The translations under genes were made by a program, and so were the position numbers. The notes below the pieces were generated by a model that had not been told where the DNA came from, made no database searches, and worked only from the letters and a program-made list of their open reading frames with translations. A DNA stretch of 32,000 nt from Acaryochloris marina MBIC11017. Lineage in GTDB: Bacteria; Cyanobacteriota; Cyanobacteriia; Thermosynechococcales; Thermosynechococcaceae. The stretch lies in assembly GCF_000018105.1 (NCBI RefSeq), contig NC_009925.1, positions 2,700,001 through 2,732,000 on the forward strand, read 5' to 3'. Below, piece after piece: positions 5,973 through 27,935 of the stretch. How positions within the stretch are numbered: the first letter of the stretch is position 1; the number at the start of each line of letters is the position of its first letter.

Positions 5973-7073
5973 TGTCAGAGATAAAGACAGCTTTGGTAAG
6001 TACCTATCCAAAATCAATTACATAATCTTTTCCGAAGCCCTTAAGGATTTTGTCGATGTACAGACTCAGGCTGCCTAAACACTTGTAGGCAGCAAATTCA
6101 ATCCACTCATATTTCATAAAACGCCAGAAAATCTCAATCAAATTCAGATGCGGTGAATAGGTAGGTAGCCAGAAAATTTCGACATTCTTGGCTTTCCAGT
6201 CCTCAATTTTTTCTTCAATTTCAGCGTTTTTATGGACGCTGGCTTGATCCATCACCACAACCGTGTGTTGATCACAGGTCCTACTAAAATCATCGATACA
6301 GGCCACCACCACAGCACTGGTAATACTCTTGTCAAACACATAGGAAGTGAGGTCATTGTGCCGATTCATCAACCCCAACACGTTGAATCGACTGCTGCGT
6401 TGACTGGGAAGTCCTAGTGTTTCCCCTTTCTCCTGCCAAGCATAGGGGACATACGGCACTAAGCAAAACCCGCTTTCATCGAGATATCTCAGGTCCAGCT
6501 CACCTTTTTCCTCTTGGCGCTTCAAGACCTCTAACTGATGACGTTTGGTTTCATACTCCACTGGGTCTGGCTGGCCTGCAACGACCCGCCTGAGACGACG
6601 CCAGCTCATGGAACATGATTTGAGGATGCGCTTGAGGGTGGTTTTGCTCACCGCTATGTTCCAGGCTTCTTTGATCTTGGCCAACACAGCATTGAGGTTA
6701 TGCGGAGTCATTTTTGCCCACGCTCGGATTTGCTCCTTCTGCACGTCATTCAACTTAGGTTTACGGCCCCGGCCTGGCTGATCATACAGACCCACTAAGC
6801 AGTGGTTGTCCCAATCATCTAACCAGGTATAAACCGTTTTTCGGGTGACGGCAAAGATGCTCATTAACTCTGTGACATTGAACCCTTCAAAACTCAACAG
6901 AATGCAATGGGCACGTTGACGGACTTGGTGGTGATAACTATGGCGATGAATCCGGCTGAGTAAATGGATGGTCTCTGGGCTCAATCCCTGAATAAAACGT
7001 TGTTTCATTGGGCTACAAGCTATTCGCTATCAACTGAACTGAAACCACTTATTATGATGTAAATATTTCTGGC
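5973..7073 (-). mobile_element. IS630-family insertion sequence, copy 1 (boundaries tentative)
   Basis: It carries an intact transposase gene. A weak imperfect terminal inverted repeat is visible: GTCAGAGATAAAGACAGC from 5974 against the reverse complement of the right end, GCCAGAAATATTTACATC. TA dinucleotides sit at 5971-5972 and 7074-7075. A length near 1.1 kb fits IS630. Confidence 0.55.
6004..7008 (-). CDS. IS630-family DDE transposase (intact, single ORF)
   Basis: 334 aa. N-terminal HTH region, then DDE motifs YLDESGF, VVMDQASVHKN and YSPHLNLIEIFWRFMK. Confidence 0.9.
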   Translation of the reverse strand: MKQRFIQGLSPETIHLLSRIHRHSYHHQVRQRAHCILLSFEGFNVTELMSIFAVTRKTVYTWLDDWDNHCLVGLYDQPGRGRKPKLNDVQKEQIRAWAKMTPHNLNAVLAKIKEAWNIAVSKTTLKRILKSCSMSWRRLRRVVAGQPDPVEYETKRHQLEVLKRQEEKGELDLRYLDESGFCLVPYVPYAWQEKGETLGLPSQRSSRFNVLGLMNRHNDLTSYVFDKSITSAVVVACIDDFSRTCDQHTVVVMDQASVHKNAEIEEKIEDWKAKNVEIFWLPTYSPHLNLIEIFWRFMKYEWIEFAAYKCLGSLSLYIDKILKGFGKDYVIDFG

Positions 7074-9161: not shown

Positions 9162-10104
9162 TAGCACTACGGATATATGTTAGTACGCTCTTTGAAAGCA
9201 GCATCCACACAATCACGAAAGGTATCAAATTCATCCCACCGCTGCTTCATCCAGTTTTTGAGCACAAACCACCATCGCTCGATTTTATTGAGATCTGGAG
9301 AATAGCTCGGTAGATACCAAATCTCACAGCCTGCTTCAGCTACGATTTCTTCGATCCTCTGGCCATGATGAAAACTGGCATTATCAATCACAATCACATC
9401 GCCAAGTTGTAACTGGGATATAAGACTCTGCTGTAACCACGCTTCGAATAACAACCGATTGCAAGACCCTTCAAAGATCATGGGAGAAAATAACTGGCCT
9501 TCTTTGAGCGCAGCAATAAAACTGACTCGCTCTGTCCGCTTGCCTGATTTGAGGTCATAAAATCGTTGACCCACAGGGCAGTATCCATAAGGATAGTCCG
9601 CTCGATTATCGATACCCGCTTCGTCTACATAGACGATCTGATGAGGGTGTTTGGTCTGTAATCGTTCTATAAATGCTTGACGTTGTGTTTCATCTCGTTC
9701 TCGATAGCCATAGGTCTTTTTTTCGACTCAATCCCAGTTTTCTCAAGGCATCACTGATATTTTGCTGGGTGACATTATCCCCCCATAGCTTAGCCATTTG
9801 GGCCTGGGTTTTACCCCCATGCTCTTGAGCAAATTCACGAAAGCGCTCCCAATCTGTGATCTTGTGGCGAGCCCCTTGTTGGTAGTTGGTAATCGCCTGA
9901 CAGTCACCTGTAGCTTCTTCGCGGACTATCCATAGATGCAAGGTATTACGGCTGATGTTCAACATTCGACAGATATCGACTTTCCGTTCACCATTCTTGA
10001 AGGCATCAACGGCTTTACGACGAAGGTCATAACTATAGGGTGCTGGCATACTAATGTAGGGATATCTTCTATATCAATAGTACTAACATAGTTTCGTAGG
10101 GCTA
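9162..10104 (-). mobile_element. IS630-family (small, ISY100-like size) insertion sequence, copy 2
   Basis: 943 bp. Terminal inverted repeats TAGCACTACGGATATATGTTAGTAC (9162-) and the reverse complement of the right end, TAGCCCTACGAAACTATGTTAGTAC, match at 21 of 25 positions. TA target duplication lies at 9160-9161 and 10105-10106. Removing the element rejoins the REC reading frame. Confidence 0.9.
9167..10049 (-). CDS. IS630-family transposase in two frames joined at an A7 tract
   Basis: orfA (9690-10049) has the HTH (ICRMLNISRNTLHLW). The downstream frame reads TYGYRERDETQRQAFIERL...VYVDEAGID...VIDNASFHH...YSPDLNKIERWW (DDE). The switch is at AAAAAAA (T7 on +, 9717-9723). One A fewer would give a single ORF. 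Confidence 0.85.
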
Positions 10105-10725
10105 TATTAGTGAAGTTATTGGAATTAGTGGGATGCGAGGTTTGAGCCGTCAGTAATGGTCAAGATGCTGTAAATCAGTCAGAGCAATGGCAACCTGATT
10201 TAATTTGGTTAGATTTACGTATGCCAGTCTTAGATGGATATCAAGCAGCTCAACAAATCAAAACCCAACCTCAACCGCCTATTATTATCGCCTTGACTGC
10301 TAATGCTTTTGAGGAAGACCGTAGCAAAGCCTTAGCTAGTGGCTGTGACGATTATGTACGTAAGCCCTATAAGGAATCGATCATTTGGGAAAAGCTGGCC
10401 GAGCATTTAGGGGTCCAATATCTTTACGCTGAAATTCAGAATGATGAAAGTTGTATTGATGACTTTGGCTTAACTGCAGCTATTTTGCTCGCTATCTCTA
10501 GTCCGTGGCTTCAGAAGTTGCATGCTGCGGTGATTGAACTAAATTCGAATCAGGTTGATCAATTATTAACTGAGATTCCTAAAGAGCATCGTCGATTGAA
10601 ATTAGCTATTTCTGAGCTGGCACAACAGTTTCGCTATGACGTACTCATGAACCTAACTCAAATGGCCCTGGAAGACCAGCCTAGCTAAACAAAGGTCGAT
10701 TTACTTCAGTCGCTGCTGCTGGGGA

Positions 10726-14020: not shown

Positions 14021-15162
14021 CCAAATCCGATTTATATAACCCCGATATGATGCATTATTAGAGAATGCCAAGAAAACTATATCTCGAACCTCATTTTTCG
14101 CCTGACGAGCTGAAGTCTCATTATCGAGCCAGCAAAGACCCAGTAGAATCGCGCCGCTGGCATCTACTATGGCTCGTCAGTGAGCAAACAACCCTGACTC
14201 ACGCAGCCCAAGTGGTGGGTCTCAACTACGATTACGCTCGAGAAATCGTCAGGGAGTATAACCACAATGGCGCCCATGGGTTACACAACCGACGCAAAGA
14301 TAAGCGACCTCATCAATCTCGCAGTCTTCTCACTCAAGACCAATGTGCACAATTGTTGACTCGTCTACAAACACCACCCGCCGACGGTGGTCTATGGAAC
14401 GGACCCAAAGTAGCCCAGGTCATCGCTCAGATGACAGGAGTCGATAAGGTTTGGCCCCAACGGGGTTGGGACTATCTCAAGCGATTGGAGCAGTCCCTGC
14501 AATGCCCACGTCCTCATCATCGTAAAGGTGAACCGGAGGCCCAAGCCGCCTTTAAAAAAACTTCCTGAATACAAAGCAGAATTAGAGCGATGCTATCGTG
14601 ATGCTCAGGTCGAAATTTGGTCTTTTGATGAACACCGATTAGGCCTTAAACCCATTATTCGAAAGATTTGGGCGCCTGTGGGGCAGCGTCCAATTGCTGA
14701 GGTGGACCATCGCTATGAATGGACCTATCTATACGGATTCGTTCATCCCGCAACCGGCGATACCGAATGGTTCATTCTACCTCGGGTCAATGGAGAATGG
14801 TTTAATCAAGCCCTACAAAGCTTTGCTCAGCAAGTTGGAGCGGGAAAGCACAAACAGATTCTTCTCGTTCTGGATGGAGCCGGATGGCATACCTGTAAGA
14901 ATCGGGTGGTGCCACCTGGCATTCATCTGAAGATTTTACCCCCCTATTCTCCAGAGCTACAGCCAGCTGAACGGTTGTGGCGGCTAGCGGACGAGCCACT
15001 GGCTAATCAGTGTTTTGAGACCCTGGATGACCTCGAAGATGTTCTCGAGCAGCGCTGTCGAACCTTAATGACAATGCAATCGGACATTAAAGCTCTAACT
15101 CATTACCATTGGTGGCCAGCTTGACAGATGAAATGTTTCGGGGGTTAGTAAGTCGGATTTGG
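14021..15162 (+). mobile_element. IS630-family insertion sequence, copy 3
   Basis: 1142 bp. Inverted repeats CCAAATCCGATTTATATAACCCCGA (14021-) and the reverse complement of the right end, CCAAATCCGACTTACTAACCCCCGA. TA duplication at 14019-14020 and 15163-15164. Confidence 0.85.
14065..15124 (+). CDS. IS630-family transposase in two overlapping frames joined at an A7 tract
   Basis: orfA (14065-14568) holds the HTH part. orfB is in the +1 frame and carries the DDE motifs (WSFDEHRLG, LVLDGAGWH, YSPELQPAERLW). The A7 run is at 14554-14560. With A6 the reading would be a continuous ...AAFKKLPEYKAE... Confidence 0.9.
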
Positions 15163-15716
15163 TATGATACCAAATGTGCGATGATCTTCGACCGGCCTTT
15201 GACCATCGCATACCCCTGGGCAGGTGGAAACGTAATCGTGCTCAACTGTTGAGGATTAGTCTGCAGTTGCAATTTTCAATGGTTACGTCCCCGTCATGGA
15301 AGTACGTTCTGGGGGTAGATTGGCAACGACAACACAGACATCATCACTATCCAACATGATGGACTGAAGCTGAACTGAAATGGGCGAACTCCTCTGCAGC
15401 TGAATCTGACTTGCCAGAATCCGTGATTCCTGGCTAACGCCTACTCAATAGACTGTTTCATGCTCGTCCTTGACCAATAAGTCATTCTGAGTCAGGGACT
15501 TAATCACCTCAAAGCTTTCATCAATGCGTTTCTGGATGATTGCATTCCGGCCACGGATTGAGGCAATCATCAAATATCTTCTTCCCTTTTCACCGACACT
15601 TCCCAATACACCTTTGGGAACACCCAAGACTTTATTGAAGGCAGAGAGAACGCCCCCGCTGCTATTGGCACACTGAAAAGCCCTATGCGACTTACAAGGG
15701 TTTAGTACAAAAGAAA

Positions 15717-15788
15717 GCTGGTGACAAGACTCGAACTTGCGACCGGCTGATTACAAATCAGCTGCTCTACCAACTGAGCTACACCAGC
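15717..15788 (-). tRNA. tRNA-Thr (anticodon UGU)
   Basis: The minus strand reads GCTGGTGTAGCTCAGTTGGTAGAGCAGCTGATTTGTAATCAGCCGGTCGCAAGTTCGAGTCTTGTCACCAGC. It folds as a cloverleaf with a 7-bp acceptor stem, anticodon loop TTTGTAA and a GTTCGAGTC T-loop. No CCA is encoded. Confidence 0.9.
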
Positions 15789-15991
15789 GTGCCTAGACAT
15801 TATATAAGCGTTATAGCCAAAACGCCTATACACATCAAACTAGCTCATCTATGATAATTCAGATATTCCCCATTTTTCATAAATGGTGGCAAATTCTCTG
15901 TAGATTGTAGAGAAGCACCCATTAGGCAATTGCCATTGCTAAGTGCTTAGCAGGCCGCACAGCTGCCATAATCCCTGATTTTGCCTTGACC

Positions 15992-17305
15992 ATGACGATG
16001 ACTTGGACGGTTGAGCAAGTGATTGCTCTATCACCGGACGATAAATCCACCAAAAACGGTAAAAGTTTAGCCACTGCCAGTAAATGGCAGACTTTAGGCA
16101 CCAATCAACAGGCCATTTGGGGTGAATGTCGCGGCAGTGGTAAGAAACCCTACCGAACCCAAATCGATCTGAGCGAACCAGCCTTTCGCTGTAGTTGCCC
16201 CAGTCGCAAGTTTCCCTGCAAACATTCCCTAGCCCTGTTCCTATTGCTTGTTAACCAAGTGGAATTATTTACCGCCGCCGATCCCCCCGACTGGGTTCAG
16301 GAATGGTTAGAGAAGCGATCTCAAACCGCATCCCGTAAGCAGGCCAAGGCCACTACTACCGACCCAGAAGCCCAAGCCAAACGCATCGCCCAGCGCGAAG
16401 CCAAAATCCTGGCTGGTCTAGCTGATTTGGACCAGTGGCTCCAGGATTTAATGCGTCAGGGCTTAGCCACGGCCCAAAACCAACCCTATAGTTTTTGGGA
16501 ACAGGCCGCTGCTCGCATGGTCGATGCCCAAGCGCCCGGTCTAGCTCACCGTCTGCGAGAAATGGCCAGTATTCCCCACACAGGCGGCAATTGGCCATCT
16601 CGCCTATTGGCTGAATTGGGCAAGCTCTATTTACTCGTGCAAGGGTATCAGCGACTGGCCACCTTACCAGAAGCTGCACAAGCGGAATTGCGATCGCAAA
16701 TCGGCTGGACCCAAAAACAAGAGGATCTGCTCACTAGCCCCTCCCCTATGGTGGTCAAAGATACCTGGTCGGTTCTGGGCAAACGGATCACCACCGAAGA
16801 CAACTTAAATGTTCAGCGCGTCTGGCTATGGGGCATCACCCATCAACGCCCCGCCCTCATTCTGAGTTTTGGGTATCAAAATCAGCTCCTCGACACCAGT
16901 TTGATACCAGGCACGCAGATATCAGCAGAGCTGGTTTTCTATCCAGGGCTCCATCCCCTACGAGCGTTAGTCAAAGCGCGACAGCCTGACGTTGACCTTA
17001 TCCCTCCACGGGGAGGTGCAGCCAATATTGCGGACGCCATCGCCCATTACGGAACGGCAATGGCGACCAATCCTTGGCTCGTGCAGTTTCCGTTGCTGTT
17101 AACCACCGTCATCCCTCACCGGACGGATCAACAATGGCACATCGCTGATACGCATGGGCATCAACTACCCCTCCAGTCAGGATTTGACCCATGGCCTTTG
17201 CTAGCTTTAAGTGGGGGGCATCCAGTGATGCTCTTTGGAGAATGGAATGGCCACAGCCTTCTCCCCCTCAGCCTTTGGGCTGGCGGCCGATTTGTCCCTT
17301 GCTAG
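15992..17305 (+). CDS. SWIM zinc-finger family protein
   Basis: About 437 aa. The track ORF starts at TTG 15986 and the first ATG is at 15992. The SWIM signature is CSCPSRKFPCKH (CxC...CxH), followed by a charged linker and a long C-terminal region with no motif I recognise. Confidence 0.85.
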   Translation: MTMTWTVEQVIALSPDDKSTKNGKSLATASKWQTLGTNQQAIWGECRGSGKKPYRTQIDLSEPAFRCSCPSRKFPCKHSLALFLLLVNQVELFTAADPPDWVQEWLEKRSQTASRKQAKATTTDPEAQAKRIAQREAKILAGLADLDQWLQDLMRQGLATAQNQPYSFWEQAAARMVDAQAPGLAHRLREMASIPHTGGNWPSRLLAELGKLYLLVQGYQRLATLPEAAQAELRSQIGWTQKQEDLLTSPSPMVVKDTWSVLGKRITTEDNLNVQRVWLWGITHQRPALILSFGYQNQLLDTSLIPGTQISAELVFYPGLHPLRALVKARQPDVDLIPPRGGAANIADAIAHYGTAMATNPWLVQFPLLLTTVIPHRTDQQWHIADTHGHQLPLQSGFDPWPLLALSGGHPVMLFGEWNGHSLLPLSLWAGGRFVPC

Positions 17306-17311
17306 GAGTTC

Positions 17312-18871
17312 ATGATGCCAACCCCTTGGGAAACATTAGTCGCCCATGCCTTAATCGGTACCGATCGCCAAACACCACAGATACCAACGGGGGAAGGACA
17401 ACTCGAAGCACTACTCAGCCAAGTGCCGACAGAAGCAGAATCCCTACTCTTACACGCTGCAGGGATTGTGGCCAGCTATCAACAGGCCGGACAAGGTGCG
17501 TTCTCTCAGGAAGGACCACTACCCACTTGCTGCCCAGAAGAAACCTTATTCCCCTGCAGTGACCGTACCCATCAACATCTACAAACCATTCTCAATGGTG
17601 AATACAAAGACGCTTTATGTGAACTCTTAGATCTAATAGCCCAAGCGCACCAATATATTCCCTTTGAAACATTACCCGCCCTCCTAGATCAAGGCCGTGG
17701 GCAAACCTCGTTACGATCTCATATCCAAGCCGTCATCGGCGAACGGGGACGCTGGTTAGCACAACATAATCCAGTGTGGGCGTATGCTGCTGGTCAAACT
17801 TTGCCTTATACACAGGCTGGGGAAATCGACCAAGAGGCTGTGGAAAACTTGTGGAAAACTTCTAATTACGCCCTCCGAGTCGATCTGTTGAAAACTTTCA
17901 GAAGTCTTAAGCCTCAAGCTGCTCGAGAGATGTTAAGTACCACATGGAAGCAAGAAAAGGCCAAAGATCGAGCAACGTTTCTTGCCATACTCAAAACGCA
18001 TCTTAGTTTAGAAGATGAACTCTTTCTAGAGGCAGCTTTACACGATCGCGCCCAGGATGTCCGAACAGGTGCTCGTGATCTGCTGGCCCACTTACCCCAG
18101 TCACAATATTGTCAGCGTATGGCTGCCCAGATACAAACCTATGTTCAGTTCGAGAACAATACCCTCTCTATTACCCTCCCTCAAGATGATGGCTCCTGGA
18201 AACATGAGCGTTCTTACTCCCAATCCAGTCAGTTAGGACGGCGAGGGAGTCTGCTGATGCAAATCGTAGCAGCTGTTCCCTTAAAGGTTTGGCCAGAGGA
18301 TGTAGATGGTCTGATCCAAACCGCCCAGACCCACCAACAGGGTGCTGCTCTATTACAGGGATGGACCATCGCAGCCCAGAGACAAGCCAATCCAGCATGG
18401 ATCCAACGAATGATGGGCTATTGGCTCAGCAATCTTGCCGAGCAGCAAACCGATGACTCCATTGATTTTCTGATTAAACGATTGCCCGCTGAACAGATTG
18501 AGCCGCTATTTCTACAATGTCTAGCCGAATCTAGCTCTCCTGCGGAAAAAGCCCAAAAATGTATCAGATTGGCCCAGTGGGGGGCATTCCTCAGTCCCCA
18601 TTTCAGTCAGGTTTGGTGGGAAACCCTTAAACCCGGCCTCAGCCCATTACTGGCACACACTTCAATTGCTTCACAGACACGATTACAGTTTGCAACGTTG
18701 CGATCGCTGTTCGATACCGGGTCTCTCAATCTGCATCCCATCATTGCCGATGATGTCATTACTTACCTTAACCACTTGAATAGCGAGGCATTCTCGACCT
18801 ATCAACAAAACAGCTTGATGCTATGGCGAAGTACCTTCGAATTCCGCAAAGCTATCTGGTCAGAATTTTAA
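17312..18871 (+). CDS. helical-repeat protein resembling DUF5691 (usual partner of this SWIM family)
   Basis: 519-aa ORF starting 6 nt after the SWIM stop codon. AGGAG overlaps that stop. HEAT-like segments are present (LHDRAQDVRTGARDLLAHLP). The family assignment comes from memory of gene context and overall character, not from a search. Confidence 0.6.
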   Translation: MMPTPWETLVAHALIGTDRQTPQIPTGEGQLEALLSQVPTEAESLLLHAAGIVASYQQAGQGAFSQEGPLPTCCPEETLFPCSDRTHQHLQTILNGEYKDALCELLDLIAQAHQYIPFETLPALLDQGRGQTSLRSHIQAVIGERGRWLAQHNPVWAYAAGQTLPYTQAGEIDQEAVENLWKTSNYALRVDLLKTFRSLKPQAAREMLSTTWKQEKAKDRATFLAILKTHLSLEDELFLEAALHDRAQDVRTGARDLLAHLPQSQYCQRMAAQIQTYVQFENNTLSITLPQDDGSWKHERSYSQSSQLGRRGSLLMQIVAAVPLKVWPEDVDGLIQTAQTHQQGAALLQGWTIAAQRQANPAWIQRMMGYWLSNLAEQQTDDSIDFLIKRLPAEQIEPLFLQCLAESSSPAEKAQKCIRLAQWGAFLSPHFSQVWWETLKPGLSPLLAHTSIASQTRLQFATLRSLFDTGSLNLHPIIADDVITYLNHLNSEAFSTYQQNSLMLWRSTFEFRKAIWSEF

Positions 18872-19670
18872 AATCGCTTAGTATCTAGATCCGTTCAGGC
18901 TCAGTACTTTTTACATTAACTCTATAAAAACCTGTAGACTACAACCCTTAATCTACATTTATAGCTACGCTTAAGCCTCGCTCCACCAAGACTCACACAA
19001 AGCCAAGAAACTACGGCATGGCTTAACAAATAGAGATTATGGGAGACTGACAGTCAATCCAACCATAATTTTCTTAAAAAATCCCAAATCAAGTTTTTGA
19101 GATTGCTAAATTGGAAGCTAAATCAGCCGTCAGAACAGCTCAAATTTATCTCTTTTCACAAGAAAACAGCAGTTATTGTTATTTGTAAAATATTTGACTT
19201 TACACTAAAAAACCATTCTGGATTCCTCAAAATAAATTAATAATTAGTATCTATTTTGATGCTATAAAAGAGTAAATCTTACATCAAAGAATACTAATTT
19301 TCTTTGAAAGCACTCAATAATAGAGAAGCATTTCACTCCATGAAGATTTGGCACTCTACCCAAATCCATAGAGATGGTTTCAGCTGTTTATAAAGTTTGG
19401 GGGAGGGGCAAAAAGATATCAACTGTCTAGGGAATGCTTTTTAATGCCATCGTTTCACAGACTAGCTGATAGCACTAAAAATATTACGTAATAACACGCA
19501 AGCACCCTGATATTTAGATAGCTAGAATAATTGCTAGTGAGGGAAAATCATTAACCGAACTCAAGGTTAATGTTCGGAGTGCTGGGGAAATTTTCGATTA
19601 TCCTTTGTTACTGACCAGTGATTGTTAGCCGTTTGTTCATGTTTCGATAGCTTATCTCTCTCTACAACCT

Positions 19671-21143
19671 ATGCTGGCTAAGCCTCAAACCATTCTGCCT
19701 TCTCCACAACTTGCAATTAATCCCCGTGGGTTTGAGTTGTGGTATCAACCGGTGTATGACGTTTCTTCAGGGAACGTTCTTCAAAATGAAGTGCTTTTAC
19801 GATGGCGGGATACCCAAGGGCTGATCCATCGGCCGAAAGAGTTTATGCCAGTGGTTCAAAATGCGGATGCTGAGCCATGGTTAGATCGCTATGTGACGGG
19901 ACAGGCCATTGCCCAATTAAAGCAACACGCTCACCTTAAGCTTTCTATTAATTTATCAAAGCGCATTGTCGAAGATCGCTTTATCGCCGAAGATATTTAC
20001 GATCTGCTGGTCAACCACAGCGTTCAACCGCACCAACTGCACTTTGAAGTATCAGAAGCGAGTCTGGCCAAAAATTTCCAGGATTCAGTTGCTTTAATCC
20101 GAGATCTAAAAGAACTCGGATGCTCCGTCACCTTAGACAATTTTGCTAATCAACATCTCACCTTTCTGCAGTGGGAAAAGCTAGGGGTTGATGCCGTTAA
20201 AATCGACCCGTCTTTGATTCGCGACCTGAGACAAGATTCGCCCCAAACGCGATTGGCCAAAGCCATCATAGAAACCAGTACCGCCTTGGCACAACCTGCG
20301 ATCGCAACTTCCGTAGACGCTTACGCCACCTCTCGTCACTTAGTGAATCTAAGCTTTAAGTCCGCCCAGGGATATCACTTCAAGCCTCCTAGCGATCACC
20401 CTTGGCTCACAAACACAGTTGATATTTTAGGGGTTCCCATTGATAACGTGACCCAAGACGAGTTGCTCCAGGAACTGAAATCGGGCATCGTTTTTACTCC
20501 CAATGTTGACCATCTCATGAACCTGAAGCAGGATGAAGAGTTTCGAGCTGCTTACAACATCGCCGACTACAAAATTTGCGATAGCCAGATTCTTTACTTT
20601 TCCTCCCATTTCCTTGGCTCACCGATCAAAGAAAAGATTTCAGGATCAGATTTATTTCCCGCCTTTTACACCTATCACAAAGATAATCCAGACATCACCA
20701 TTTTCCTGTTAGGTGCTGCGCCAGGCGTAGCCGCTCAAGCGCAACAAAACATCAATGCCCATGTGGGTCGTGATATCGTCGTTGGTTCTTACTCTCCCTC
20801 CTATGGTTTTGAAAACAACCCCGAGGAATGTGCAGAGATTATCGAACGGATTCATCACTCTGGAGCAACGGTTCTCGCCATTGGAGTCGGATCGCCCAAG
20901 CAAGAGCGATGGATTTATCGGTATCGTCAACAGCTAGCAGAGTCTGTAAATATTATTTTTGCCATAGGCGGCACTTTAGATTTTGAGGCTGGTACTCAAA
21001 AACGGGCTCCAAAGCTCATCAGCACCATGGGCGTTGAGTGGCTCTTTCGCCTGATGGGTGAACCGAAACGCCTCTGGAAACGTTATTTAATTAACGACCT
21101 GCCATTCTTGAAATTAATGCTGCATCAAAAATTTGATCGCTAA
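19671..21143 (+). CDS. fusion protein: degenerate EAL domain plus WecB/TagA/CpsF (GT26) glycosyltransferase domain
   Basis: 490 aa. EAL landmarks: WYQPVYD, NEVLLRW, SINLS, HFEVSE, TLDNFA, KIDPSLI, ATSVD, AQGYHF. The C-terminal half has GT26 landmarks: GVPIDNVTQDELL, TPNVDHLM, FLLGAAPGVA, GVGSPKQERW, GGTLDFEAG. Confidence 0.85.
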   Translation: MLAKPQTILPSPQLAINPRGFELWYQPVYDVSSGNVLQNEVLLRWRDTQGLIHRPKEFMPVVQNADAEPWLDRYVTGQAIAQLKQHAHLKLSINLSKRIVEDRFIAEDIYDLLVNHSVQPHQLHFEVSEASLAKNFQDSVALIRDLKELGCSVTLDNFANQHLTFLQWEKLGVDAVKIDPSLIRDLRQDSPQTRLAKAIIETSTALAQPAIATSVDAYATSRHLVNLSFKSAQGYHFKPPSDHPWLTNTVDILGVPIDNVTQDELLQELKSGIVFTPNVDHLMNLKQDEEFRAAYNIADYKICDSQILYFSSHFLGSPIKEKISGSDLFPAFYTYHKDNPDITIFLLGAAPGVAAQAQQNINAHVGRDIVVGSYSPSYGFENNPEECAEIIERIHHSGATVLAIGVGSPKQERWIYRYRQQLAESVNIIFAIGGTLDFEAGTQKRAPKLISTMGVEWLFRLMGEPKRLWKRYLINDLPFLKLMLHQKFDR

Positions 21144-21268
21144 TGCGTCCTACAAGCTGCTTCTAACAGCGATTTAATCTATAACTCCCATTCTTACCGC
21201 TGAGTGAGCAGTGGGTTGTCTTGTACGGCTGCACAAGCCATGATGAAAGCAGTTGTTATGCAGCCCCT

Positions 21269-21688
21269 ATGGATACAGAACACCAACGCTTAACTCTACA
21301 AATTTTGATCGGTTCAGCCTGGGTAGACCATACGCTCAGTGAACCCGAAGTGACCTATCTCAAACAGGTACTGGATCGCTACCATCTAACGCAGGATAAC
21401 GAGTTGAAGGCCCTTCTCCAGGAGCCGGTTCCCGCTCAACAAACTGAACGCTGGATCGTTGAGTTTTTAAGGCAAACCAACCAAGAAGAACGACTGAAAC
21501 TCTTGGCAGCCATCGGTAACTTATTAATTGCCGATGATGTGGTGTCAGAGATAGAGCATGACTTACTTGATGAGTATCATGCCCTGATGGCTCAGATTCC
21601 CGATGACCCACATCACATTAGCAATTTAGTTAGGAATATCGGATCTTACGTTAACAAAGCCTTGCAAACCCTCGCCAACTTGCCTTAA
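21269..21688 (+). CDS. TerB-like (tellurite-resistance TerB / DjlA N-domain-like) protein
   Basis: About 139 aa from the ATG at 21269 (the track ORF starts at TTG 21221). The helical pattern LIGSAWVDHTLSEPEVTYLKQVL ... LLAAIGNLLIADDVVSEIEHDLLDEY is typical of TerB-fold proteins. Confidence 0.55.
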   Translation: MDTEHQRLTLQILIGSAWVDHTLSEPEVTYLKQVLDRYHLTQDNELKALLQEPVPAQQTERWIVEFLRQTNQEERLKLLAAIGNLLIADDVVSEIEHDLLDEYHALMAQIPDDPHHISNLVRNIGSYVNKALQTLANLP

Positions 21689-22638
21689 GGAACTGAGGCA
21701 AAGACCTGGTCGCGCAGCTGCTTAGACACCATATAAGGCTTCGGATCGACTGGCTTCTCACTACGATAAATTGAGTAATGCAAATGAGTCCCTGTCGATC
21801 GCCCCGTACTTCCCATAAAGCCCAGCAGCTGTCCTCGCTTAACGGACGTATTGGGTTTAACCGTTAGCTTAGAAAGATGGGCATACAGGGTTTGGTATCC
21901 ATAACCATGCTGAATCACCACATGATACCCATAGCCACCCGAATAACCCGCTCGCTCAATCTTGCCGCTGGCTGTTGCATAAATGGGAGACCCATAATCT
22001 CCCAATAAATCTATGCCGTCATGGATTTCAGCACGCCCCCCAAAAGGACCGGAGCGTAAACCAAAATCAGACGAAATAGGACTATGACCTTTCGTCGGCT
22101 TACCCTGAGGCAAAGCCGCATTACGGGCTTCTTCCGCTTGTAGCGTCTTTTCTAGGGCTGGTTGAACCTGCTGCTTAAGGCGAGAAGTCAACGCAGGCAA
22201 GCGGGTTTTGGCAAATTTCAGCTGCTGTTCCGTATCCAAAACCACAGGAACTCCACCTTTACCACCCTTAAGCTTGATTTGTTGGCGCTCTACTTGAGAT
22301 AACCCAGTTCGCTGACGGAGTTTTTTGACTTCTTCATCTAAGACTTCTAGCTTGACTTGCTGGCGCTCTGCTTTGGATAATCCAGCTCGCTGACGAAGTT
22401 TTTCGACTTCTCCGTCTAACACTTCTAGCTCTTCTAACACTTCAGCAGCTGATTCTGATAGCTGATCATGCCTTTGCTGCAATGCGTAAAAAGTTTTACC
22501 AGCCCAGACTGCAGGAACAGCAGCCATTGATAAGCCCAAAATGATGAGGATAGGACTAACCGAGAATTTGACGGAACGTTGTCCTGTTAGAGTAATCAAG
22601 ATCCGAAAGCGTTTCGGGATCGGAAGGAGAGAACGCAT
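21685..22638 (-). CDS. M23 (LytM) family metallopeptidase with N-terminal TM segment and coiled-coil repeats
   Basis: Catalytic motifs HDGIDL (HxxxD) and GTHLHYSIY (HxH). ATG at 22638 (the track ORF starts at TTG 22653). Its stop codon overlaps the convergent TerB-like stop within TTAA at 21685-21688. Confidence 0.9.
   Translation of the reverse strand: MRSLLPIPKRFRILITLTGQRSVKFSVSPILIILGLSMAAVPAVWAGKTFYALQQRHDQLSESAAEVLEELEVLDGEVEKLRQRAGLSKAERQQVKLEVLDEEVKKLRQRTGLSQVERQQIKLKGGKGGVPVVLDTEQQLKFAKTRLPALTSRLKQQVQPALEKTLQAEEARNAALPQGKPTKGHSPISSDFGLRSGPFGGRAEIHDGIDLLGDYGSPIYATASGKIERAGYSGGYGYHVVIQHGYGYQTLYAHLSKLTVKPNTSVKRGQLLGFMGSTGRSTGTHLHYSIYRSEKPVDPKPYMVSKQLRDQVFASVP
22271..22426. repeat. 78-bp tandem duplication (2 units) inside the M23 peptidase gene
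   Basis: Units 22271-22348 and 22349-22426 differ at about 12 of 78 positions. They encode VLDGEVEKLRQRAGLSKAERQQVKLE and VLDEEVKKLRQRTGLSQVERQQIKLK. Confidence 0.85.
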
Positions 22639-23023
22639 AAAGGCCCAACACAAAGGATTCGTGAAGAATCATATCAAATTATGAGGTCAATATTAAATAT
22701 TTCTTAAAAAACAAGGCGAATACTAAACTTGGGGGTGCAAAAAATTTGATTTGCAGACCACCCCGTTGAACGTATCGATCGGGTTGGTCCCAATTTCAGC
22801 CCATACTATCGCTGCTTGCCAAAATTCTCTCTAGGCAAATATTCTTACATGCTTCTGCTTCCATAGAAAAGGGCCAGTTGTGAATGGGTATGATGAGAAT
22901 AGGGAGAATGCAACATCTATACCCTAAACCTATCACCCTGATTCAATTCCCTTATCCACAGTAAGTAGTGGATTGATATATCCTAAGAACAGCTTTGCAT
23001 AGCTCAATACATTTTTTAGACTT

Positions 23024-23177: not shown

Positions 23178-23612
23178 ATGACTAAAAAGCCCCCCAAGGA
23201 AACAGCAGTGACCACTGCCCATCCTCAAGAGTCTGCATTACAAAAAACAGTGAAGGCGTTGGGTTTAGCAAAAATCCAGCGTCATATTTTTATCTGTGCC
23301 GATCAAACAGTGGATAAATGTTGTGATAAGGCAGCCAGTATAGAAGCTTGGACTTACCTAAAAAAGCGATTGAAGGAGCTAGGCTTAGACCAACCAACGG
23401 ATAGCTGCGTTTTCCGCACTAAAGCCAACTGTTTGCGTGTCTGTCAGCAAGGTCCAATTATCGTTATTTATCCGGATGGCGTTTGGTATCATTCCGCTAC
23501 GCCACCCGTGATTGAAAGGATTATCCAAGAACATTTACTGAAGAACCAAATCGTTTCAGAATTTCTGTTCCTTCAGCATCCTTTACCTGAACACCTGGTC
23601 AAGACTGAATAG
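23178..23612 (+). CDS. thioredoxin-like [2Fe-2S] ferredoxin domain protein
   Basis: 144 aa. Cys clusters IFICADQTVDKCC and NCLRVCQQGP, followed by IVIYPDGVWY, typical of the thioredoxin-like ferredoxin fold. Confidence 0.75.
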   Translation: MTKKPPKETAVTTAHPQESALQKTVKALGLAKIQRHIFICADQTVDKCCDKAASIEAWTYLKKRLKELGLDQPTDSCVFRTKANCLRVCQQGPIIVIYPDGVWYHSATPPVIERIIQEHLLKNQIVSEFLFLQHPLPEHLVKTE

Positions 23613-23616
23613 CACT

Positions 23617-24369
23617 TTATTCACTTTGAGTGGTAGACGTAGGAGAAGGTTGAGGCTCTTGTTGGCTCACCCAATACCATCCTCCCAGTCCAGCCAAGAT
23701 AATGAGCACAATGGGCACACTCAACATCCATAGCCGCGGTTGTTGACGAACAATCAAGGTTTGTTTTTGTCGCCCATCATCAGCTTTCTTTGAGCTAGAA
23801 CCCGCTACCGTGGACTCTGGCATAGTATCTAGGGCGGCAGGGCCTGAATTTGCCTGGGAAAGGATAGCAGCAGGGTCTCGGGCAAGACGGGTTTTGGCCG
23901 TCGGCGATGCAGCCAATTCTGCTTCAGCAGCAACCACTGTTGCTTTAGGATTCACGGCATCAGATTTGAGGCTCTGAAAATCCGTGGATTCCAAATACCG
24001 GATAAATTCTGCTTCCCCCATCGACACCACCAGGTAGGACGCTTTAATCTTTCGTCCCAAGCCAAGGCGATCGCCATCAGCGAGTTCTTGAGAACTACAC
24101 CGCTTGTCATTGACGAAGACACCATTAGCACTGCGGTTGCCTTCAGAGTCTCCATCAATAAGTCGATAACGATAGGTGCTTTTTCCAGGAGTCGGCAAGC
24201 GCAGAAGAATGGCATGCTTACGAGAAATCGTGGGAGAATCCAGCACGATAGCGTTAGACTCATCTCGCCCAATAGAATAGGCTGCTGAGTCAAGGGCAAT
24301 CGCACGACGTTTACCATCGTTAATAACCAGAACGTGCCGTTCAGAAGAATCGTTTTTAGGGTCGTGCAT
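23617..24369 (-). CDS. FHA domain protein with low-complexity linker and C-terminal TM helix
   Basis: 250 aa. FHA core YSIGRDESNAIVLDSPTISRKHAILL...NGVFVNDKR. C-terminal helix WMLSVPIVLIILAGLGGWYWV. Confidence 0.85.
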   Translation of the reverse strand: MHDPKNDSSERHVLVINDGKRRAIALDSAAYSIGRDESNAIVLDSPTISRKHAILLRLPTPGKSTYRYRLIDGDSEGNRSANGVFVNDKRCSSQELADGDRLGLGRKIKASYLVVSMGEAEFIRYLESTDFQSLKSDAVNPKATVVAAEAELAASPTAKTRLARDPAAILSQANSGPAALDTMPESTVAGSSSKKADDGRQKQTLIVRQQPRLWMLSVPIVLIILAGLGGWYWVSQQEPQPSPTSTTQSE

Positions 24370-27846: not shown

Positions 27847-27935
27847 GGAGAGGTGGCTGAGTGGTCGAAAGCGGCAGATTGCTAATCTGTTGTACGGTGA
27901 ACTCCGTACCGAGGGTTCGAATCCCTCCCTCTCCG
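27847..27935 (+). tRNA. tRNA-Ser (anticodon GCU)
   Basis: GGAGAGGTGGCTGAGTGGTCGAAAGCGGCAGATTGCTAATCTGTTGTACGGTGAACTCCGTACCGAGGGTTCGAATCCCTCCCTCTCCG. It has a long variable arm, anticodon loop TTGCTAA and a GGTTCGAATCC T-arm. Confidence 0.9.

Follow-up and report, generated by a model that had tools for sequence, protein, structure and literature searches.

A degenerate EAL domain fused to a GT26 glycosyltransferase in Acaryochloris marina: a candidate cyclic di-GMP effector of lipid-linked polysaccharide synthesis

EAL::GT26 is a fusion protein of 490 residues encoded by Acaryochloris marina MBIC11017 (contig NC_009925.1, positions 2,700,001 to 2,732,000). This whole stretch of 32,000 nucleotides (nt) is called the window, and residue numbers are those of the 490-residue product. 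The protein joins a degenerate N-terminal EAL domain to a glycosyltransferase of the WecB/TagA/CpsF family (GT26). With moderate confidence, it is read here as a one-protein effector of the biofilm signal cyclic di-GMP (c-di-GMP) that gates a step of lipid-linked polysaccharide synthesis. The evidence comes from the catalytic residues that the EAL half has lost, from the pocket that its relatives have kept, and from a sister architecture in which the same kind of EAL domain is attached to a different polysaccharide output.

Two Pfam domains lie in one frame of the open reading frame (ORF), EAL first and Glyco_tran_WecG second. The EAL match (PF00563) covers residues 15-240 and positions 7-236 of the 236-position profile, with an E-value of 1.3e-49 and 169 bits against a cut-off of 31.3. 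Glyco_tran_WecG (PF03808) covers residues 298-472 and its complete profile (1-168 of 168), with an E-value of 1.7e-53 and 181 bits against a cut-off of 27.4. Both scores are far above chance. No PilZ or MshEN domain was present among the Pfam matches at E <= 0.1, and EAL and WecG are the sole domains. Alignment to PDB sequences matches residues 250-487 to residues 4-240 of the 244 in full-length TarA/TagA (7mpk; E 1.8e-35), and residues 12-240 to the EAL domain of MucR (5m1t), the best among about 40 matched EAL structures. The EAL domain ends at residue 240 and the GT26 fold starts at residue 250, leaving a linker of only about nine residues. Conservation was assessed in a family alignment of 74 full-length members that are 45-95% identical to the A. 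marina protein. In this alignment K238, P240 and S241 of the KPPS motif before the linker are at least 90% conserved, as is Met1, whose conservation argues for the start codon. The GC content of the gene is about 0.47, like that of its surroundings.

An AlphaFold2 (AF2) model, built with the 74-member alignment, has a mean predicted local distance difference test (pLDDT) score of 89.5 and a predicted template modelling (pTM) score of 0.86. For a two-domain chain, this pTM suggests a defined inter-domain arrangement. The pLDDT exceeds 90 over most of residues 20-240, and the GT26 tail (residues 440-490) is helical with pLDDT 68-82. A Foldseek search of the PDB with the model returned EAL domains, including c-di-GMP complexes of MucR, MorA, FimX, LapD and TBD1265, at target-normalised template modelling scores (TM-scores) of 0.77-0.92; for the EAL structures of MucR, FimX and LapD the range was 0.81-0.92. 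Against MucR EAL (5m1t), the E-value was 2.7e-18, the target-normalised TM-score 0.84-0.92 and the root-mean-square deviation 1.5-2.0 Å. The EAL half is thus predicted to adopt the TIM-barrel-like fold of EAL domains.

An earlier note on this DNA, made from the sequence alone, had described a single ORF with an N-terminal EAL domain and a complete GT26 domain. It had advised that the domain boundaries be aligned to profile hidden Markov models (HMMs) and that other genomes be searched for the architecture, and it had named two genes joined by a sequencing frameshift among the findings that would refute it. Its description stands, both domains matching at full length in one frame with the boundaries given above, and the architecture recurs elsewhere. 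In a search of about 5.8 billion proteins, both Pfam domains occurred together in 76 clusters, which are 45-95% identical. The named cluster sources are all cyanobacterial: Acaryochloris, Acaryochloridaceae, Thermosynechococcaceae, Altericista, Stenomitos, Petrachloros and Lyngbya confervoides. When one genome per GTDB species was scanned, 20 species-level genomes proved to carry the fused gene, the complete Altericista sp. CCNU0014 chromosome among them, and family-specific HMMs placed both halves in one ORF in each of the 20. The nearest genome is that of Acaryochloris sp. IP29b_bin.176, at 87% over the EAL half. A HMMER search of 1.84 billion representatives (50% identity) gave three full-length fusion representatives among the best 150 matches. 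Of the matches with two matching stretches, ten were checked; each proved to be a tandem GT26-GT26 protein, in some cases with added VanZ or STAS domains, rather than an EAL fusion. Within the reach of these searches, the fusion appears to be a cyanobacterial family. Sequence pairs that are more alike in one half tend to be more alike in the other (correlation of pairwise identities, r = 0.76; means of 48% for EAL and 61% for GT26), and this correlated divergence points to a single old fusion.

The possibility that two adjacent genes were joined by a sequencing or assembly frameshift was considered and rejected. Stand-alone GT26 orthologues of about 275 residues exist in other cyanobacteria, and nothing else was found in favour of an artefact. 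The ORF is continuous, and the same short conserved linker is present in the 76 clusters and 20 species genomes, which come from independent assemblies. This recurrence refutes an artefact, which deserves almost no credence.

The EAL half carries most of the motifs of an EAL phosphodiesterase. Residue equivalences were taken from a pairwise alignment with MucR and from the family profile aligned to RbdA, PA0861, MorA and PA0575. NEVLLRW holds E40 and R44, SINLS holds N94, HFEVSE holds E126 and E129, VKIDPS holds K177, and AQGYHF holds Q233. TLDNFA, with D156 and N157, aligns with DDFG, and ATSVD, with T213 and D216, aligns with EGVE. In the pairwise alignment, 'isiDDFGtGY' of MucR lies opposite 'vtLDNFAnqh', and 'vaEGVEt' lies opposite 'iaTSVDa'. 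The profile alignment to the other four proteins gave the same DDFG to LDNFA and EGVE to TSVD equivalences, so that both substitutions are confirmed against five active phosphodiesterases. Every motif quoted in the earlier note was found and aligned as claimed, and the two losses that it had read from the sequence were borne out. The second Asp of DDFG is N157 when set against MucR, RbdA, MorA and PA0575, and an Asp is gone from this position in 71 of the 74 relatives. The general-base Glu of EGVE is T213, and no relative has a Glu there.

RocR provides the reference set of catalytic and Mg-binding positions (E175, N233, E265, E268, D295, K316 and E352) and of recognition positions (Q161, R179, D296 and D318) (PMC2952852). 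D296 and E352 are members of the metal-coordinating set (PMC7911125). The A. marina protein keeps E40, N94, E126, E129, D156, K177, Q26, R44 and D179 at these reference positions; N157 replaces D296, and T213 replaces E352. An active phosphodiesterase has all seven catalytic and Mg-binding positions (PMC2952852), and this protein has six, the seventh being that of E352. Loop 6 is also non-canonical. It reads LDNFANQHLTF opposite DDFGTGYSSL of MucR and MorA, and does not have the canonical DFG(T/A)GYSS.

The same losses and retentions run through the family. All 74 relatives have E40, L42, R44, N94, E126, E129, D156, K177 and Q233, and 73 have Q26, which falls in a gap in the remaining one. Lys stands at position 213 in 68 relatives, Thr in 6 and Glu in none. 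Position 157 is Asn in 51, Gly in 14, Ser in 5, Asp in 3 and Thr in 1. Invariant columns make up 16 of the 226 in the EAL domain, and they are concentrated in the RocR reference positions (7 of 11, versus 9 of the 215 others; Fisher p = 6e-7). P55, D72 and G234 are also invariant. The ligand contacts of FimX include P491, M495, D508 and G674 (PMC7288161), and the spacing of P55, D72 and G234 resembles that of the FimX contacts, to which they may correspond. The pattern is that of a degenerate receptor: catalytic residues are gone, while Q26, L42, R44, Q233 and G234 persist in at least 73 of the 74 relatives. As judged from the alignment, the ligand and metal-1 pocket is under purifying selection, and substitutions at the metal-2 and general-base positions have become stable. 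This combination is the signature expected of a non-hydrolysing binder and not of a ligand-blind scaffold. The EAL half should therefore bind c-di-GMP but not cleave it, and the complex probably contains one Mg2+. YkuI-type EAL domains bind c-di-GMP with a single site-1 metal (PMC3527489), which is the state predicted here; unlike the EAL::GT26 family, in which two are replaced, YkuI retains the canonical catalytic residues.

The EAL half could instead still be a slow phosphodiesterase, serving as a local c-di-GMP sink or as a trigger enzyme coupled to the transferase. Of the seven RocR catalytic and metal positions, all but one are intact, as is the entire metal-1 site, and the Lys found at the general-base position of most relatives is conceivably catalytic. 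Set against this are the Glu missing from all 74 relatives and the second Asp missing from 71, the degenerate loop 6 (DNFANQHLTF versus DDFGTGYSS), and the A. marina protein's own clade, which has Thr and not Lys at position 213. Mutagenesis of RocR and TBD1265, ascribed to Rao (2008) and Tchigvintsev (2010), is also said to have found that the D296 and E352 positions are both needed for activity. Residual hydrolysis is accordingly improbable.

Even less probable is that the EAL half senses another nucleotide, such as pGpG, 3'3'-cGAMP or another cyclic dinucleotide. The EAL domain of FimX binds pGpG (PMC3527489), VcEAL is mentioned, in a citation within PMC7288161, as acting on cGAMP, and the changes at D296, D318 and E352 alter the pocket. 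Nevertheless, the guanine- and phosphate-contact positions Q26, L42, R44, P55, D72 and Q233-G234 are invariant, and Acaryochloris-type genomes are rich in GGDEF and EAL proteins, with 60 in A. marina (PMC3747582).

The degenerate receptors LapD and FimX offer the closest model for binding without hydrolysis. By analogy with them, the earlier note had suggested that the domain may bind c-di-GMP without hydrolysing it and would control the transferase allosterically, and the checks made in silico support that suggestion. Like the domain described here, they have the EAL fold, have lost catalytic residues and have kept the ligand pocket; they act as sensors rather than enzymes, as is predicted for this domain. 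The AF2 model superposes on LapD (3pjt/3pju) and FimX (3hv8/4fok) with target-normalised TM-scores of 0.79-0.88, although sequence identity to the EAL half is only about 26-28%. LapD and FimX are GGDEF-EAL tandems that act on separate partners (the LapG protease, and PilZ/PilB, respectively), whereas EAL::GT26 has a lone N-terminal EAL domain fused to an enzyme. FimX keeps four of ten key residues (PMC3527489), whereas the EAL half keeps the full metal-1 site.

A sister architecture carries the same EAL subtype. Three cyanobacterial proteins have an N-terminal EAL domain that is 37-40% identical to that of the A. marina protein, scores 218-261 bits on the family EAL HMM, and is not followed by GT26. 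In these proteins, from a Limnospira metagenome-assembled genome (MAG), Lyngbya sp. CCY1209 and a Prochloraceae MAG, EAL is followed by one predicted transmembrane (TM) segment and then by a HlyD-type membrane-fusion domain. A MAFFT alignment shows that the sister EAL domains keep the Q, E, L, R, P, D, N, E, E and D of the signature, with D296 replaced by Asn and E352 by Lys. The representatives P0204 and P0266 have the same DN...K signature. In all three loci, an orthologous membrane GT2 of about 700 residues (48-89% identity) is encoded downstream of the EAL-TM-HlyD gene. In the Prochloraceae locus, a UDP-sugar 6-dehydrogenase gene lies between the two, and a gene for a PL14 polysaccharide lyase follows. 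No description of EAL-HlyD was found in the literature search.

The gene and domain order of the sister proteins is that of the alginate machinery. This machinery consists of the dehydrogenase AlgD, the GT2 Alg8, the co-polymerase Alg44 (a PilZ-TM-membrane-fusion protein) and the lyase AlgL. Binding of c-di-GMP to the PilZ domain of Alg44 activates alginate polymerisation. In the sister proteins, the degenerate EAL domain occupies the position of PilZ. The analogy is drawn from gene and domain order, the sister proteins have an EAL domain and not PilZ, and they are distinct from EAL::GT26. The sister architecture is considered here the strongest argument for a receptor role of the degenerate EAL domain. 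The presence of one EAL subtype in both fusions suggests that the subtype predates them and is a portable N-terminal module attached to polysaccharide outputs. It is possible, and held here somewhat less firmly than the effector reading itself, that cyanobacteria have a portable c-di-GMP receptor module: a lone N-terminal EAL domain with a 'D-N ... A-K/T' signature and a PilZ-like role, which is fused to GT26 in one lineage and to an Alg44-like polyuronide-synthase co-polymerase in another.

GT26 enzymes such as TagA and WecG are peripheral-membrane proteins. They transfer the second sugar to an acceptor linked to undecaprenyl diphosphate, which is the first committed step once priming is complete. 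As expected of a peripheral GT26, no TM segment is predicted in the fusion protein. For comparison with TagA, the 7mpk alignment was put on T. italicus TagA numbering, with residue roles taken from PMC6493773 and PMC8784642 (Table 1). D304, T276, N278, Q411 and E412 are conserved in 65-74 of the 74 relatives, and the tail residues are conserved too. The positions of the solubilising mutations in the TagA tail (203, 209, 212 and 216) are the hydrophobic L449, V455, L458 and M462, so that the membrane-binding patch is kept. With the full TagA set of catalytic and tail residues, the GT26 half looks catalytically competent. The homology to TagA/TarA and WecG extends over the full length and includes the catalytic Asp, the Thr/Asn/Gln/Glu pocket, the Arg triad of the tail and the hydrophobic patch; the fusion protein differs from them in its extra N-terminal putative sensor of 245 residues and in falling under the equivalog cut-offs. 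It scores 113 bits on the NCBIfam GT26 superfamily model TIGR00696 (cut-off 69), but only 94.9 against 350 for TarA, 97.9 against 323 for WecG, and 152 against 500 for EpsA. Because these equivalog scores are far under the cut-offs, the GT26 half is best described as a family member without an assigned donor or acceptor specificity. Cyanobacteria have no wall teichoic acid and no enterobacterial common antigen. The retention of N278 and Q411, which match the TagA N-acetylmannosamine-specificity residues N39 and Q167, hints that the donor is a 2-acetamido sugar.

Stand-alone GT26 proteins (about 275 residues, 62-65% identical to the GT26 half) are widespread in Nostocales, Chroococcidiopsis and other cyanobacteria. 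Homologues that are 55-59% identical to the GT26 half are fused to Bac_transf (a priming phosphoglycosyl transferase, in either order), STAS, GT2, GT4 or GT28/Alg14. Proteins P0122, P0128, P0136, P0142 and P0164 are examples of such fusions, with STAS domains in P0164. Tandem GT26-GT26 proteins are common, and some have an added VanZ. Read as Rosetta-stone links, these fusions place the enzyme in a lipid-linked oligosaccharide pathway beside the priming step, and suggest that the step attracts regulatory domains. Regulatory and pathway fusions seem to concentrate at the GT26 step. In Acaryochloris sp. IP29b_bin.148, the fusion ORF (L009:5998-7395, P0008) is about 24 residues short, and the end of the GT26 tail is absent (HMM 1-216 of 239). 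This copy could reflect a sequencing error in the MAG or could be decaying.

TagA exists in an equilibrium between inactive soluble dimers and active membrane-bound monomers, where the tail at the C terminus completes the active site (PMC6493773, PMC8784642). The mechanism that we infer, from binding without hydrolysis through the allosteric route and the direction of regulation to the sugar and polymer made, builds on this equilibrium. The EAL pocket and metal-1 site would take up c-di-GMP without cleaving it. Ligand-induced changes in loop 6 or in the EAL dimer interface would then be transmitted through the short rigid linker to GT26, and c-di-GMP would bias the TagA-like equilibrium between dimer and membrane-bound monomer. 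High c-di-GMP would switch on transfer of the second, committed sugar from its UDP-sugar donor onto the undecaprenyl-diphosphate-linked primer, and the outcome would be more flux into a surface or extracellular polysaccharide. The direction, in which c-di-GMP switches the enzyme on, is proposed because of the analogy with all known c-di-GMP-controlled polysaccharide systems. The logic resembles that of BcsA (GT2 with PilZ) and NfrB (GT2 with MshEN; PMC8669469, PMC8669472), in which a c-di-GMP-binding domain is covalently attached to a polysaccharide glycosyltransferase and exerts direct post-translational control. The likeness is one of logic and not of family membership. The sensor of BcsA and NfrB is a C-terminal PilZ or MshEN domain, whereas here it would be an N-terminal EAL domain. 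Their enzyme is a processive GT-A/GT2 membrane synthase, whereas the GT26 half belongs to the GT-E fold and would catalyse a non-processive, lipid-linked step.

Several observations weigh against the effector reading. One of the four recognition positions, D296, is altered, and D318 varies in the family (Asp or Arg). The degenerate EAL proteins YdiV, BluF and CsrD do not bind c-di-GMP. A 2010 genomic survey judged c-di-GMP binding by degenerate EAL-only proteins to be generally unlikely (PMC2952852). This survey, the degenerate catalytic site and the tendency of EAL domains to dimerise (PMC3527489) favour a domain that senses no nucleotide and serves in dimerisation or as a scaffold, for example in docking the transferase to envelope-biosynthesis proteins, as may be compared with YdiV, BluF and CsrD. 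A scaffold is unlikely, because a pocket and metal-1 site invariant in 74 sequences with a mean EAL identity of 48% are hard to explain without a ligand, and because the same EAL subtype holds the PilZ position in an Alg44-like protein. The genomic context also speaks against a c-di-GMP-gated polysaccharide step. The 32-kb window contains no exopolysaccharide gene cluster and no diguanylate cyclase/GGDEF gene. No conserved operon partner was found outside Acaryochloridaceae, where the neighbourhoods in Altericista, an ENA genome, Petrachloros and Lyngbya confervoides all differ. Finally, a sub-clade (P0062 and P0067-P0070) has Asn in place of the GT26 catalytic Asp (D304; TagA D65), and P0070 additionally has Ala at the T276 position. 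The GT26 half of these proteins may be catalytically dead or may use another base, and their output would not be a simple activation of catalysis.

The positions of the features are given in Table 1. The fusion gene appears to be a stand-alone monocistronic unit. The four genes downstream are syntenic with it only within Acaryochloridaceae; the TerB-like ORF and the M23 peptidase gene accompany it in five Acaryochloridaceae loci. The TerB-like ORF weakly matches the C-terminal part of DUF5691 (E 7e-4). The tight SWIM/DUF5691 gene pair was seen only in locus L008, and the other loci do not extend that far upstream. A weak terminator-like hairpin (21197-21214, plus strand) lies 54 nt past the fusion stop codon, just ahead of the TerB-like ORF, and is a hint of a monocistronic fusion gene. 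In Lyngbya confervoides BDU141951 (L003:10001-13069), which belongs to the catalytic-Asn clade, the fusion gene is followed without gaps by exosortase (EpsH family) and HpsJ-family genes.

Upstream of the fusion gene is an AT-rich intergenic gap of 800 bp (18872-19670; GC 0.38). Among five Acaryochloris relatives, its sole strongly conserved stretch is a block about 110-190 bp before the ATG. The block contains TTACGTAA, a ACGCAAGCAC motif and a -10-like hexamer, TAGAAT, at 19523-19528. It is likely a promoter or operator, which would imply a leader of about 135 nt. No Rfam family matched the 800-bp gap at E <= 1 in the search for a riboswitch or known RNA.

Elsewhere in the window there are three IS630-type transposase genes (DDE_3 with a helix-turn-helix [HTH] domain), at 6004-7008 (minus strand), 9167-10049 (minus strand) and 14065-15124 (plus strand). 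One is intact; in each of the other two, HTH and DDE occupy separate ORFs, owing to a frameshift or to programmed frameshifting. These genes are consistent with an Acaryochloris-like genome rich in insertion sequences (IS). An ORF at 10221-10688 (plus strand), beside IS remnants, covers no more than the C-terminal half of a response-regulator receiver domain (profile 52-109 of 111) and is probably truncated or has a mis-called start. Two tRNA genes (RF00005) lie at 15716-15788 (minus strand, 72 bits) and 27847-27935 (plus strand, 64 bits). The second, at 89 nt, appears to be of the long-variable-arm type.

Table 1. Features of the EAL::GT26 gene and protein, flanking genes, and loci of the sister architecture. 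Coordinates are those of the window unless a locus is named; TagA matches are given as residues of the fusion protein.
Feature	Position	Strand	Basis or context
EAL::GT26 fusion ORF, 490 residues, ATG start	19671..21143	+	ORF list; stop codon within range
Degenerate EAL domain, residues 15-240	19713..20390	+	PF00563 match; AF2 model versus EAL structures
Codon of N157, in place of second Asp of DDFG (RocR D296, metal-2 ligand)	20139..20141	+	Alignments; family counts
Codon of T213, in place of first Glu of EGVE (RocR E352, general base, metal-2 ligand)	20307..20309	+	Alignments; family counts
Inter-domain linker, residues 241-249, after K238-P-P240-S241 motif	20391..20417	+	EAL match ends at 240, TagA match starts at 250
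GT26 (WecB/TagA/CpsF, GT-E) core, residues 250-440; T276, N278, D304, Q411, E412	20418..20990	+	PF03808; 7mpk; TagA residue mapping
GT26 C-terminal tail, residues 441-490; E456, W457, R460, R467, R471 and hydrophobic patch	20991..21140	+	TagA mapping; helical in model
Match to TagA T37	T276		Pocket
Match to TagA N39	N278		Pocket, donor specificity
Match to TagA D65	D304		Proposed catalytic base
Match to TagA Q167	Q411		Pocket, donor specificity
Match to TagA E168	E412		Pocket
Match to TagA E210	E456		C-terminal tail
Match to TagA W211	W457		C-terminal tail
Match to TagA R214	R460		C-terminal tail
Match to TagA R221	R467		C-terminal tail
Match to TagA R224	R471		C-terminal tail
Conserved upstream block, 74 bp, putative promoter/operator	19484..19557	+	Upstream alignment of five Acaryochloris relatives
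SWIM zinc-finger protein	15986-17305		Upstream of fusion gene
DUF5691 protein	17312-18871		Upstream of fusion gene
Small TerB-like protein	21221-21688		Downstream of fusion gene
M23 peptidase	21685-22653	-	Downstream of fusion gene
Suc_Fer-like protein	23178-23612		Downstream of fusion gene
FHA protein	23617-24369	-	Downstream of fusion gene
Limnospira MAG (L028)	L028:2009-6887		EAL-TM-HlyD and GT2 pair
Lyngbya sp. CCY1209 (L029)	L029:4889-10083		EAL-TM-HlyD and GT2 pair
Prochloraceae MAG (L050)	L050:956-7646		EAL-TM-HlyD, UDP-sugar 6-dehydrogenase, GT2, PL14 lyase

Going by the literature searched, the EAL::GT26 arrangement is previously undescribed. Full-text searches found no description of EAL::GT26 and no functional study of a cyanobacterial GT26, and Agostoni 2013 makes no mention of EAL::GT26. 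The logic of a fused sensor and the existence of degenerate EAL receptors are already known. If the effector reading is true, this would be the first case of c-di-GMP directly gating a transferase of the GT-E fold, and through it the committed step of a lipid-linked pathway (Wzx/Wzy- or ABC-type). Post-translational control by c-di-GMP would extend from processive synthases (cellulose, alginate, Pel, poly-N-acetylglucosamine and NfrB) to a non-processive lipid-linked transferase, and a lone EAL domain would be the sensor of an enzyme. Of cyanobacterial c-di-GMP signalling, least is understood about the downstream receptors, and a 2023 review, which calls these receptors poorly known, named only the PilZ cellulose synthase XcsA and CdgR (PMC10124867). 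EAL::GT26 would be a new effector that ties c-di-GMP to envelope or exopolysaccharide synthesis in cyanobacteria of the Acaryochloris/Thermosynechococcaceae type, and the EAL-HlyD/GT2 operon would be a second, independent system carrying the same module.

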